Source of the DNA: an uncultured archaeon
Lineage (GTDB): Archaea > Aenigmatarchaeota > Aenigmatarchaeia > GW2011-AR5
Assembly (NCBI GenBank): GCA_964373695.1
Contig: CAYJVT010000027.1
Coordinates: 1 to 10,316, forward strand
DNA: 10,316 bases
Direction: 5' to 3'
Both the position numbers and the translations under genes were made by a program. Shown piece by piece: positions 1 through 9,066 of this stretch (the first letter of the stretch is position 1; every line of letters begins with the position of its first letter). The notes beneath the pieces are model-generated. The model was given only the letters and a program-made list of their open reading frames with translations. It searched no databases and had not been told where the DNA came from.

Positions 1-95
1 TACACGCGGCCTACAATGCGTAGGACAATGGGATGCAACACCGTAAGGTGAAGCCAATCTCCTAAACCTGCGCCCAGTTCGGATCGAGGGCTGCA

Positions 96-146
96 AGATT
101 GCTAACGAACAACTATGATTATAGCAAAGCGATAGTAATCCAGCAA
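96..146 (+). other. 51-nt BHB intron in 16S rRNA (after ~A1318, h42 loop)
   Basis: Central helix GCTG 90-93/CAGC 141-144; bulges CAA 94-96 and AAA 145-147; inner stem GATTGCTA/TAGTAATC. Cutting after the 2nd nt of each bulge restores GGGCTGCA|ACTCGCCC. Confidence 0.93.
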
Positions 147-191
147 ACTCGCCCTCGTGAAGCCGGAATCCCTAGTAAGCGAAGGTCATCA

Positions 192-438
192 ATGCTGCGA
201 ATTCTTAGATGACTATCTGCAGAAAACGAAGTTTTCTGAGATTCTCAAAAACCTTCGGTTTTTTGCAGAATTTGGCGTCATGAAAAACAGAAACAGATGA
301 TTGAAGAGTATGGGCGGCTAGCGAAATAAGCAAAAACGCTCTGCGTTTGGTTTGTTTCATATGCTAGCAACGGTTTGACTCTGATGTTTCGAAATTTCAT
401 GCAAGCAGCACGATGATTTGTTTTCGCAGCACGTGAAA
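192..438 (+). other. 247-nt ORF-less BHB-type intron in 16S rRNA (after ~1363, h43 loop)
   Basis: Inner stem TGCTGCGA 193-200/TCGCAGCA 424-431; central helix TCAT 186-189/GTGA 433-436 with one extra C432 (relaxed BHB); bulges CAA and AAT; h43 stem as outer helix. Splicing gives GCGAAGGTCATCA|TCTTTCGCTGAAT. Confidence 0.9.
216..269 (+). repeat. Hairpin family A, inverted doublet inside the 16S intron
   Basis: TCTGCAGAAAAC-GAA-GTTTTCTGAGA (216-241), then T, then the reverse complement of TCTGCAAAAAACC-GAA-GGTTTTTGAGA (243-269). Confidence 0.8.
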
Positions 439-555
439 TCTTTCGCTGAATACGTCCCTGCTCCTTGCACACACCGCCCGTCAAGCCATCCGAATGAGGT
501 TTTGGTGAGGTCTGTGATGAGCAGCTCGAACCAAATCTTTGTAAGGAGGGCTAAG

Positions 556-586
556 AGATTAACGGCTGCGGCCGTTTTTCGAGCAA
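556..586 (+). other. 31-nt BHB intron in the 16S decoding region (between ~G1494 and U1495)
   Basis: Interrupts CTAAG|TCGTAACAAGG. Central helix GCTA 550-553/GAGC 581-584 (one A.G mismatch); bulges AGA and AAT; inner hairpin GATTAACGGC-TGCG-GCCGTTTTTC. Confidence 0.9.
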
Positions 587-651
587 TCGTAACAAGGTAG
601 CCGTACGGGAACGTGCGGCTGGATCACCTCCTATATTTTTTCAACTCAAAG

Positions 652-679
652 GATTGGCGCATTTCATGCGCCGGTCTGC
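652..679 (+). repeat. Hairpin family B copy, just downstream of 16S
   Basis: GATT-GGCGCAT-TTC-ATGCGCC-GGTCTGC; aligns to 8523-8550 with compensatory stem changes. Confidence 0.7.
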
Positions 680-804
680 AAGGTTGGAAAAATCATCGAC
701 TTCGTGTGCCGTCAGTTACCTTACTGACGTCCTGATAGGTGCCAAATTGCGGAAGCCGAGGCTTCCGTCCGCTCAAGCGGCTCGCGCTTTCCATTCTGAT
801 ATTT

Positions 805-6629: not shown

Positions 6630-7124
6630 ATGAAAATGCCGAAAATAAAATATAGAAATTATTACCTTCTTGGATTCACAGATGCAGAAGGCTGTTTCAG
6701 TATTTCTCTGAAAAGGGAAGATACAGCAAGATTTGGATGGGCTTTGGATCCCCTATTTCAAATAACACAGCATAAAACAAATAGAGAAATTCTAGAGATC
6801 TTTCAAAACGAACTAAATTGCGGCAGAATAATAGAAAAATCTGGACAACCAGATTTGTTATTATATCTTGTCGACAATCGAAGACAACTTGTTGAAAAAA
6901 TAATACCTTTTTTTGAGAGGAACAGACTGATGGCAAAATATAACGACTTTGATAAATTCAAGGGAGTTGTAGAAGGCCTTGAAAACAAACTGCATCACAA
7001 AAAAGACACTTTTATCAACTTAATCAGAAAGTGTTATGAAATGAATCTTGAAGGCAAACAAAGAAGATACAAGCTAGAAGAAGTCATTGAGGATATCAAA
7101 AAACGGAATCCCCAGAGACTATAA
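6630..7124 (+). CDS. Single-motif LAGLIDADG homing endonuclease (I-CreI/I-CpaI-like), 164 aa
   Basis: YLLGFTDAEGCFSISL, F.ITQH...EIL..F...LNCGRI, IIPFF; SD GAGGTGA at 6617-6623. The C-terminus overlaps the ribozyme R element. Confidence 0.96.
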   Translation: MKMPKIKYRNYYLLGFTDAEGCFSISLKREDTARFGWALDPLFQITQHKTNREILEIFQNELNCGRIIEKSGQPDLLLYLVDNRRQLVEKIIPFFERNRLMAKYNDFDKFKGVVEGLENKLHHKKDTFINLIRKCYEMNLEGKQRRYKLEEVIEDIKKRNPQRL

Positions 7125-7234
7125 GCCAAACACGAAGCAGAGCGATAGCATCACTGCTTTTGTGAAGATATAGTCCGAACCTTGCAGTAATGCAAGGAGA
7201 TTTACAGAAATGTAAATCCGCTTCAAAATAGTTC

Positions 7235-7258
7235 AACGCACTTATGTGCGTTGGTCTG
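7235..7258 (+). repeat. Hairpin family B copy in the P9 extension of the group I intron
   Basis: AACGCAC-TTAT-GTGCGTT-GGTCTG. Confidence 0.8.
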
Positions 7259-7792
7259 TTAAGGAGTCCTAAAGTAACAGCTTGAGCGTAATCCCTTGCC
7301 ATTTAAATGATGGCCTGCATGATGGATTAACCAGATGGAAACTGTCCCGAAGTGGACCCAGGCGAAACCATTGTTCTGGTGATTAGGCCAGAGACCTCCA
7401 GTGGGAAGAGTAGACCCCGTGGAGCTTTACTGCAGTTTGTTGTTGTAGTATGGAAGGGACTGTAGAGCGTAGGTAGGAGGTGTCGAAGCTTTCTCGCAAG
7501 AGAGAGTGGAGCCAACAATGTAACACTACCCTTTTTCATCTATACTGCTTATACCGAAAGGTAGACATCAACAGATAGGCAGTTTGACTGGGGCGGTACG
7601 CCTTTGAAAAGATATCAAAGGCCCTCTAAGCTCGACTCATTCCGGTCAGAAATCGGAAGGAAGAGTGCAAACGCAAAAGTCGGGTTGATTGGACTCTTAA
7701 CATAATAGTGTCCAACCGCGAAAGCGTGAGTTAGCGAGACGCAGTTCGGCCTAGATGGCTGTCTGTGGTATGAGAAAAGCTACCCCGGGGAT

Positions 7793-8390
7793 AGATCTAT
7801 AAGCGTCTGTTAATAAATCAAGTTGATGCTGGAGAAAGGATTTGTCTTTGGAGCAAGCTATGACGGAATTGTCTATCACCGTGAAGAGAAAAATGAATAT
7901 GGCTTAGAAATAGACCAGAAATCTCTTTTATGGTTGAAGATAGTTCAAAAATACTTGCAGAAAGCTTATCGTAAAAACTCTAAGATTAGAAAAACAAAAA
8001 GAGGTTACTTTAGATTGAATGTATATTCTAAAGATCTTTATAACGAACTAAAAAAACTTCACGAAAATCCGCATTTAATCTTAGAGCAAAACGAAAAATT
8101 TCAGATAGGTTTTCTTCAAGGGATCTTTGATGCTCAAGGTAGTATTCGTTTCGAAAGAAGGCATATTACCGTGAGTTCAAATGAACCGAAAACAGCAGAG
8201 ATTGTCATTAGATTGCTTGAAAAGAATTGTATAAAAACTGGAAAACCATTCAAAGACAAAAATAACGTTATAAGTATCCCTTTCTACGGAAAAAACAATA
8301 TGTTAAAATTTAGTCGAATTATAAATTTTCGTCATCCAGAAAAGAAAGAGAGACTTGATTTGTTATTAAAATCGCTTGTAAATCCCCTAT
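7793..8390 (+). mobile_element. 598-nt BHB intron in 23S (after ~U2449) encoding a homing endonuclease
   Basis: Central helix GGGG 7787-7790/CCCT 8385-8388; bulges ATA and ATA; inner stem 7794-7805/8373-8384. Splicing gives CCGGGGAT|AATGGTGTCGT. No group I core elements are present. Confidence 0.94.
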
Positions 8391-8392
8391 AA
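7826..8392 (+). CDS. Double-motif LAGLIDADG homing endonuclease; second motif has Q in place of the acidic residue
   Basis: Motif 1 FVFGASYDGIV; motif 2 FLQGIFDAQGSI; C-terminal I.FRHPEK..RL typical of the family. Start is ATG 7826 or TTG 7823. Confidence 0.9.
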   Translation: MLEKGFVFGASYDGIVYHREEKNEYGLEIDQKSLLWLKIVQKYLQKAYRKNSKIRKTKRGYFRLNVYSKDLYNELKKLHENPHLILEQNEKFQIGFLQGIFDAQGSIRFERRHITVSSNEPKTAEIVIRLLEKNCIKTGKPFKDKNNVISIPFYGKNNMLKFSRIINFRHPEKKERLDLLLKSLVNPL

Positions 8393-8418
8393 TGGTGTCG
8401 TAGCGGGCGAGAGTTCTT

Positions 8419-8626
8419 GTCCGTATTCTTCGACATTACGGGGTTTGTAAAATATTAACCTCGGTGTCTACAAAGTACCACCAACATCGTATTACCCTCA
8501 ACTGTTAGAGTGAGCAACGAATGATTAACGCACTTCGTGCGTTGGTCTGCTTTTCCGTGAAAAACAGCGTTAGTAATACGATAAAGGTCTTTGCAGACAT
8601 AGACAAACGAAGAATCCGGAGGACAA
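8419..8626 (+). other. 208-nt ORF-less BHB intron in 23S H89 (after ~U2477)
   Basis: Central helix GTTC 8413-8416/GGAC 8621-8624; bulges TTG and AAA; inner stem 8420-8432/8608-8620; outer GA/TC. Splicing restores GAGAGTTCTT|ATCGACCCC. Confidence 0.93.
8523..8550 (+). repeat. Hairpin family B copy inside a BHB intron
   Basis: GATT-AACGCAC-TTC-GTGCGTT-GGTCTGC. Confidence 0.8.
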
Positions 8627-9066
8627 ATCGACCCCGCGTGTTGCGGCGTCGCTGTCGGCTGGCCCTCTCCTGGCTGTGCAGCAGCAGCCAAGGGTGCTGG
8701 AGTTCACAGATTAAAAGGGCACCTTAGCTGGGTTCAGAACGGTGTGAGCCAGTTTGGTCTATATCTGCTGGAGGTGTCATTGCCTGAGGGAAAAGAAGGA
8801 TAAGTACGAAAGGAACATCCTTCTGCGGCCTCTTGTGTACCAGTTGTCCGACAGGGCAGCGCTGGGTAGCTACGCCGTACGCCGATTAGAGCTGAAGGCA
8901 TCTAAGCTCGAAGCGGCTCTCGAAAATAGGCAATCGGTGCTGGCAAGACGACCAGTCATGGAACAGGGGTGTAATTACCAAGCTTCGGCGAGGTATTCAG
9001 CCCATTGTCTCCTAAACCAATGCTAACCTTTAACGTTGGGAAGCAAAGAGGATTGATGCAAAAGCT

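Follow-up and report, generated by a model that had tools for sequence, protein, structure and literature searches.

Introns with a motif of the bulge-helix-bulge (BHB) type at their junctions are known from the rRNA genes of Thermoproteales and Desulfurococcales, and the 23S rRNA intron of Desulfurococcus mobilis carries I-DmoI. For archaeal (Thermoproteales) 16S rRNA genes, 13 intron loci have been catalogued (Jay and Inskeep, 2015, PMC4496867), and group I introns, which can share a host gene with BHB introns, occur in archaea most commonly at position 1931 of the large subunit (LSU) rRNA (Nawrocki, Jones and Eddy, 2018, PMC6125680). Here, we analyzed the rRNA genes on contig C27, the entire 10,316 bp of which are referred to as the window in the following, from a draft genome (1.02 Mb, 60 contigs, 91% complete, GC content of 48.6%) of the DPANN phylum Aenigmatarchaeota. 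In this window, 13 inserts interrupt the 3' end of a 16S rRNA gene (three), a tRNA-Ala gene (one) and a 23S rRNA gene (nine). Judged from its sequence, this is very probably a genuine Aenigmatarchaeota rRNA locus with an accumulation of mobile introns that would be spliced by the endonuclease EndA and by RtcB.

The locus resembles the rRNA introns of Thermoproteales and Desulfurococcales in the BHB motifs at the junctions, in the presence of long LAGLIDADG-bearing introns as well as hairpin introns shorter than 50 nt, and in their location in highly conserved regions of the rRNA. As in Thermoproteales, where introns are found at 1205 and 1213, neighbouring introns can lie a few nucleotides apart. 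Contrarily, the introns reside in a DPANN archaeon whose genome is about 1 Mb in size and has a GC content of about 49%, and far more inserts are found per gene, namely nine for 23S rRNA and, for 16S rRNA, at least 14 insert blocks; moreover, the 16S positions 1318, 1363 and 1494 are not included in the published catalogue (Jay and Inskeep, 2015, PMC4496867). The multi-intron tRNA genes of Thermoproteales, DPANN and Asgard archaea have the same enzymes, proliferation of BHB introns and relaxed motifs in common with the locus described here (PMC5829648; PMC11291895), whereas the load here is on the rRNA and the tRNA-Ala gene carries an ordinary 37/38 intron. A further parallel exists to bacteria of the Candidate Phyla Radiation (CPR), which have small genomes, are probably symbiotic, live in similar habitats and possess many rRNA inserts with LAGLIDADG genes (PMC11270868). 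In contrast to the CPR inserts, which are group I or group II introns or of the intervening-sequence (IVS) type, those of the window appear to be protein-spliced BHB introns.

The 23S and 16S rRNA genes were taken from 30 relatives, the shortest of which served as intron-poor references, and the inserts were mapped with BLAST and MAFFT against the genomes G019, G024 and G013 and against E. coli rrnB. The first-pass annotation of the window had counted 12 BHB introns (three at the 16S 3' end, one in tRNA-Ala and eight in 23S) and one group I intron. This count was confirmed by the homology mapping together with a test of BHB geometry, and matching to the Rfam small subunit (SSU) and LSU models as well as alignment to relatives and E. 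coli placed the inserts where they had been claimed (Table 1). The inserts account for 3107 of the 5995 nt of the 23S rRNA gene, which is exactly the intron total given previously for a gene estimated at ~5990 nt. The exons of 53, 678, 75, 862, 19, 128, 132, 508, 28 and 405 nt sum to 2888 nt, and the spliced 23S rRNA is collinear with those of intron-less relatives, with no insert of at least 15 nt remaining. As had also been claimed, eight of the rRNA BHB introns are short (31–247 nt) and devoid of an open reading frame (ORF). Many of the insert sites are uncatalogued and located in the decoding and peptidyl-transferase centres, and exons are as short as 19 nt, the distance by which the 23S-1633 mini-intron follows the 23S-1615 intron. 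The 16S rRNA gene starts at C12:16799 on contig C12 and spans ~6.65 kb over C12 and C27, of which ~5.1 kb is insert; at least 11 of its insert blocks lie on C12, and the BHB check covered the three on C27.

Table 1. Features of the window (contig C27). Numbers after "after" are E. coli positions; central, base pairs formed in the central helix of the BHB; H1, outer exon-exon helix; H2, inner intron-intron helix.
Feature	Position	Strand	Evidence and remarks
16S rRNA, 3' part (E. coli ~1220 to end)	1-634	+	Rfam SSU; alignment to relatives and E. coli; 5' part on C12
16S BHB intron, 51 nt, after 1318 (h42 loop)	96-146	+	central 4/4, H1 2 bp, H2 8 bp
16S BHB intron, 247 nt, after 1363 (h43 loop)	192-438	+	central 4/4, H1 8 bp
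16S mini-intron, 31 nt, after G1494 (decoding centre)	556-586	+	relaxed BHB, central 3/4
Malic enzyme gene, 413 aa	739-1980	+	Pfam PF00390, PF03949; between 16S and tRNA-Ala
AHSA1/SRPBCC-family gene, 141 aa	2013-2438	+	Pfam PF08327
tRNA-Ala(UGC) gene, canonical 37/38 intron	2484-2651	+	Rfam tRNA, 51.5 bits; anticodon from sequence
tRNA-Ala BHB intron, 95 nt, between 37/38	2521-2615	+	central 4/4, H1 5 bp (anticodon stem)
23S processing-stem BHB, 5' half	3034-3045	+	predicted cut after 3039; pairs with 9027-9036, predicted cut after 9033
23S rRNA gene, 5995 nt	3037-9031	+	Rfam RF02540, 1769.6 bits, full length (2987-position model)
23S BHB intron, 63 nt, after 53	3090-3152	+	fully canonical: central 4/4, H1 4 bp, H2 8 bp
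23S BHB intron, 825 nt, after 676	3831-4655	+	central 4/4, H2 13 bp, without H1
LAGLIDADG_3 ORF, 249 aa, in 676 intron	3920-4669		PF14528, 32.7 bits
23S BHB intron, 95 nt, after 751	4731-4825	+	central 4/4; identical motif at same site in G001
23S BHB intron, 408 nt, after 1615	5688-6095	+	central 3/4 (A.G mismatch), H2 9 bp
ORF, 120 aa, in 1615 intron	5715-6077		intact; weak Cro/C1-type helix-turn-helix match (PF13443, E 0.054)
23S hairpin mini-intron, 45 nt, after 1633	6115-6159	+	central 3/4, H2 13 bp
23S BHB intron, 88 nt, after 1784	6288-6375	+	canonical: central 4/4, H1 4 bp, H2 4 bp
23S putative group I intron of 777 nt, after U1931	6508-7284	+	P1, terminal G, P7 core
LAGLIDADG_1 ORF in 1931 intron	6630-7124		PF00961, 76 bits
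23S BHB intron, 598 nt, after U2449 (peptidyl-transferase centre)	7793-8390	+	central 4/4, H2 3 bp, without H1
LAGLIDADG_3 ORF, 189 aa, in 2449 intron	7823-8392		PF14528, 38.2 bits
23S BHB intron, 208 nt, after 2477 (helix 89 tip)	8419-8626	+	central 4/4, H1 2 bp, H2 4 bp
RNase P RNA gene (archaeal)	9696-10038		Rfam, 71.5 bits, under cut-off of 84; E 1e-18

BHB geometry was scored as an outer exon-exon helix, a central 4-bp helix of the last bases of the 5' exon with the 3' end of the intron and an inner intron-intron helix, with bulges of 3 nt on each strand that are cut after their second base. A BHB was found at the homology-defined ends of all 12 inserts other than the group I intron, and removal of each of them restores conserved rRNA or tRNA sequence, in accordance with the earlier statement that the BHB rule does so at every site. 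The central helix comprises all four pairs in nine of the 12 inserts. Random pairs of window positions reach the observed scores at a frequency of 1e-5 to 0.04 per site, and 0–24 of 440 shifted end-pairs per site score equally well. Both flanking helices of at least 2 bp are present in six cases, namely 16S-1318, tRNA-Ala, 23S-53, 23S-1784 and 23S-2477, each with four of four central pairs, and marginally 16S-1494, which is the weakest motif in the set (P ~0.04). The inner helix of the tRNA-Ala intron consists of 3 bp, one mismatch and then 7 bp. The remaining six inserts lack one flanking helix in the strict register (hBHBh'), and relaxed forms recur at the same sites in relatives; in the 16S-1363 intron, the intron helix is shifted by one extra C. 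At 23S-1615, the conserved sequence is restored only if an A.G mismatch is accepted among the central pairs, an arrangement that is also present in the relative G006, whereas a stricter 4-bp alternative (5689-6094) would leave 2 extra nt in a universally conserved stretch.

Within the same order, the 23S rRNA gene varies in length from 2948 to 6708 nt, and chained BLAST matches revealed about 11 inserts in G006 and G020, nine in G005 and G022 and eight in G002; G019 and G024 have none. Sites that recur across genera are 677, 751, 783, 1096/1100, 1287, 1615, 1634, 1785, 1931, 2071, 2450, 2480, 2534 and 2584, and nearly all of them show a 4-bp-centred BHB at the place predicted by homology. The 23S-1784 intron is common to G001, G002 and G027. 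At site 2477/2480, the motif is maintained in nine relatives, in which the insert is 84–453 nt long. The inner intron helix differs in sequence between relatives, with compensatory changes at same-site motifs, and a given site is occupied by an insert in only some of the relatives. Moreover, homologues of the intron ORFs with 49–73% identity are located at matching rRNA sites in other genera. This pattern of recurrence and homologues is what mobile introns, and not assembly noise, would produce. By these comparisons, the rRNA intron load is lineage-wide and the 23S rRNA gene of C27 is not the extreme case. A search of the literature available to us yielded no paper with at least nine introns in an archaeal 23S rRNA gene or with an rRNA intron overload in Aenigmatarchaeota or DPANN. 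The first-pass annotation, in which such a load was not known to be described for a single archaeal 23S rRNA gene, agrees with this search, but its claim of novelty is to be moderated, since relatives carry as many inserts or more.

The genome encodes one splicing endonuclease EndA on C2, a protein of 194 aa in which a single N-terminal domain is combined with a single catalytic one (alpha4-like layout), and RtcB on C31 (C31:6291-9113). Because the BHB motifs lie exactly at the homology junctions, recur in relatives and are accompanied by genes for both enzymes, the sequence evidence fits introns of the EndA/RtcB type, and the processing by these two enzymes that had been proposed for the window is supported. 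In DPANN archaea, alpha4 EndA with an extra loop has been linked to more tRNA gene disruption (Kaneta et al., PMC5829648). RtcB lies in an open frame of 989 aa, within which ~1.45 kb separate the two parts of its Pfam match (profile positions 1-51 and 48-426), and most simply this insert would be an intein.

Several observations weigh against this interpretation. We infer excision, ligation and intron circles from the sequence and from the established behaviour of BHB introns. Only three of four central pairs are formed in 16S-1494, 23S-1615 and 23S-1633, an exon-exon helix in the strict register is missing from 23S-676, 1615, 1633 and 2449, and in 16S-1363 it is the intron-intron helix that is missing in this register. 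The match of the 1931 insert to the group I model reaches 43 bits compared to a Rfam gathering score of 50. A single alpha4-like EndA would need relaxed specificity for the relaxed motifs; such relaxed specificity has been proposed for DPANN alpha4 enzymes with the extra loop (PMC5829648). Finally, several short inserts lie at hairpin tips, where expansion segments would sit too. It could be argued that the short hairpin inserts 16S-1318, 16S-1363, 23S-1633 and 23S-2477 are such expansion segments and are kept in the mature rRNA, given their location at native hairpin tips (h42, h43 and the H89 loop) with the native stem providing the outer helix, the presence of the 2477 insert in nine relatives, including the otherwise intron-poor G011 and G013, and the blocks conserved between the 1363 insert and those of the latter two genomes. 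However, each of the four has two 3-nt bulges 4 bp apart exactly where the conserved loop is restored, the 2477 geometry is kept in nine of nine relatives while length and inner-helix sequence vary, and G019 and G024 do without these inserts. An addition of 208 nt at the tip of H89, beside the peptidyl-transferase centre, would moreover be structurally implausible in view of general knowledge of the ribosome. Retention as expansion segments is thus regarded as very unlikely, and the four inserts are treated as putative BHB introns.

Following this, we propose that the pre-rRNA would be cut at every BHB, including that of the 23S processing stem, by the single alpha4-like endonuclease, that RtcB would join the exons and circularise the introns, and that the group I intron at 1931 would remove itself. 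The previous estimate of at least 11 endonuclease/ligase events is, if anything, low, given the processing-stem BHB and the additional 16S insert blocks on C12, and neither ribosomal subunit could probably be made without EndA and RtcB. Alternatively, the inserts might be cut at the BHB and the exons not rejoined, in which case the mature rRNAs would be fragments held by base pairing. Fragmented rRNAs occur in other organisms, and exons of 19 and 28 nt would be difficult ligase substrates; nothing specific to the locus speaks for this alternative. By contrast, RtcB is encoded, free pieces of 19 and 28 nt with core nucleotides are unlikely to assemble, and BHB-cut rRNA introns are ligated in the archaea studied (PMC3608112), which makes permanently fragmented rRNAs extremely unlikely as compared to splicing by EndA and RtcB. 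When metagenome contigs were searched for a 54-nt sequence that spans the 19-nt exon with its spliced junctions, no exact copy was detected.

Hallmarks of a group I intron are present in the 1931 insert, which is predicted to be self-splicing: T6507 pairs with G6518 (U.G) in a 7-bp P1 (6501-6507 with 6518-6524), the insert ends in a G (7284), and the RF00028 match at 6903-7197 (43 bits, E 2e-8) aligns both P7 strands. No BHB fits the ends of this insert. Like the archaeal group I introns described previously (Nawrocki, Jones and Eddy, 2018, PMC6125680), it is located at LSU 1931, contains a LAGLIDADG gene and shares its host gene with BHB introns; unlike that set, the C27 copy scores under the general Rfam group I cut-off of 50 bits. 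One group I intron of Aenigmarchaeota, at LSU/1923, is listed as well (PMC6125680). The long LAGLIDADG-bearing introns (676, 1931 and 2449) probably spread by DNA homing. Other genera have related endonuclease genes at these same sites of the rRNA. The short introns without an ORF most likely represent degenerate remnants or passengers. All three LAGLIDADG ORFs in the 23S rRNA gene are low in GC. The ORF of the 676 intron crosses the 3' splice site and ends 14 nt into the exon, and the stop codon of the ORF in the 2449 intron straddles the 3' splice site; read on the circularised intron, both would still reach a stop after only a few codons, giving 250 and 189 aa. The ORF in the 1615 intron has no LAGLIDADG domain according to Pfam and no homologue in the rRNA loci of relatives.

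Within the 16S-1363 intron, two blocks (290-385) are conserved with introns at the same site in G011 and G013 (L028, L029), which belong to other genera. Between the blocks is a variable hairpin, and a CTGA box as well as a partial C-box-like motif are found within them; no complementary target of at least 10 nt was found for them in C12 or C27. Box C/D guide RNAs were considered for the ORF-less introns, the leader and the trailer and rejected, as no 12-nt stretch upstream of a CTGA performed better than random guides with the spliced rRNAs as targets.

Concerning the integrity of the assembly, the first 55 bases of C27 are identical to the last 55 bases of C12. In G001, a genome of the same genus, a malic-enzyme gene with 88% amino acid identity (tblastn) likewise directly follows the 16S rRNA gene, and the introns at 23S 751 and 1785 are common to G001 and to G002 of the same genus. 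Furthermore, the closest named relative of the malic enzyme (68% identity) is from a Candidatus Aenigmatarchaeota genome. A chimeric assembly, which the first-pass annotation had raised as a possibility, was not borne out by the exact overlap, the synteny and the shared introns; because of the synteny and the two introns common to same-genus genomes, C27 is by these signs genuine and contiguous. It might still be supposed that the locus arose as an artefact of assembly or binning or represents a spare copy in decay, with intron-poor working rRNA genes elsewhere, as the draft consists of 60 contigs and C42 holds a second, diverged partial 23S rRNA gene. However, the 23S rRNA gene of C27 is the only full-length one detected in the genome, with exons intact and collinear with those of relatives, while the copy on C42 is insert-rich too and covers only the 3' half. 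The exact C12/C27 overlap, the synteny and the introns shared within the genus argue against an artefact as well, and the heavy load recurs in independently assembled relatives, some of which consist of 2–10 contigs. An artefact or a spare copy is accordingly scarcely credible, and the window is read as a genuine, intron-laden rRNA locus.

The partial 23S rRNA gene on C42 (1275-5180, minus strand) extends from E. coli ~1900 to the 3' end, and its exons are 80–92% identical to those of C27. It is without the 1931 group I intron and has only ~30 nt at site 2449; large inserts are found at other sites, including ~1.3 kb at site 2477. It belongs either to a second operon or to a relative that was mis-binned. 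The AT-rich 23S trailer of C27 contains an element of ~100 nt (9164-9270) that has copies with 90–98% identity on at least 15 other contigs, and contigs C33 and C24 start within it. This repeat looks like a miniature inverted-repeat transposable element (MITE) that breaks the assembly.

With respect to the gene layout, the designation as an rRNA locus was adequate insofar as intron-broken rRNA genes are concerned; two protein genes on the same strand separate the 16S rRNA gene from the tRNA-Ala gene, so that this is not a plain 16S-tRNA-23S operon. The malic-enzyme and AHSA1/SRPBCC-family genes have a GC content of ~56% compared to 48.6% in the genome. After the one Aenigmatarchaeota genome, the next best relatives of the malic enzyme are from Methanoregula (~60%), which hints at gene transfer. 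ARAGORN called no tRNA in the window, although the Rfam tRNA model matches the tRNA-Ala gene. The RNase P RNA gene is located ~660 nt downstream of the 23S rRNA gene. Its extra hairpin of ~65 nt (9944-10008) was considered as an intron; no convincing BHB was found at the model-defined ends, and it is read as a variable helix. Similar A-rich hairpins (CTGCA...ACGAA...TGCAGA-like) are located at 216-240 in the 16S-1363 intron, at 2540-2565 in the tRNA-Ala intron and at 2813-2838 in the 23S leader. These three were not grouped by a search that allowed substitutions only; with the hairpin at 2813-2838 as query, it detected no further close copy within the window and, in the remainder of the genome, only a single loose match.

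Taken together, the locus represents a known kind of intron in an extreme form and not a new mechanism. A more far-reaching view, which is possible but rather doubtful, is that Aenigmatarchaeota have the most intron-dense prokaryotic rRNA genes known, that the splicing enzymes are core ribosome-assembly factors and that ORF-less introns spread without endonuclease homing. The inserts split universal primer sites (e.g., 1492R) and swell the 16S rRNA gene to 6.6 kb, so that this lineage will be missed or wrongly treated in amplicon surveys and by automatic rRNA callers. Since homing-endonuclease introns, a group I intron and tiny protein-free introns occur in one gene, the locus may serve as a data set on the spread and decay of archaeal introns. 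If the rRNAs are spliced as predicted, more than 20 cut-and-join reactions would be required per rRNA pair in a cell with a genome of ~1 Mb, and the dependence of ribosome production on EndA and RtcB would be far closer than in any archaeon in culture. Should Aenigmatarchaeota indeed be the intron-densest lineage, their genomes would be a natural model for the invasion of essential genes by introns and for intron fixation therein.

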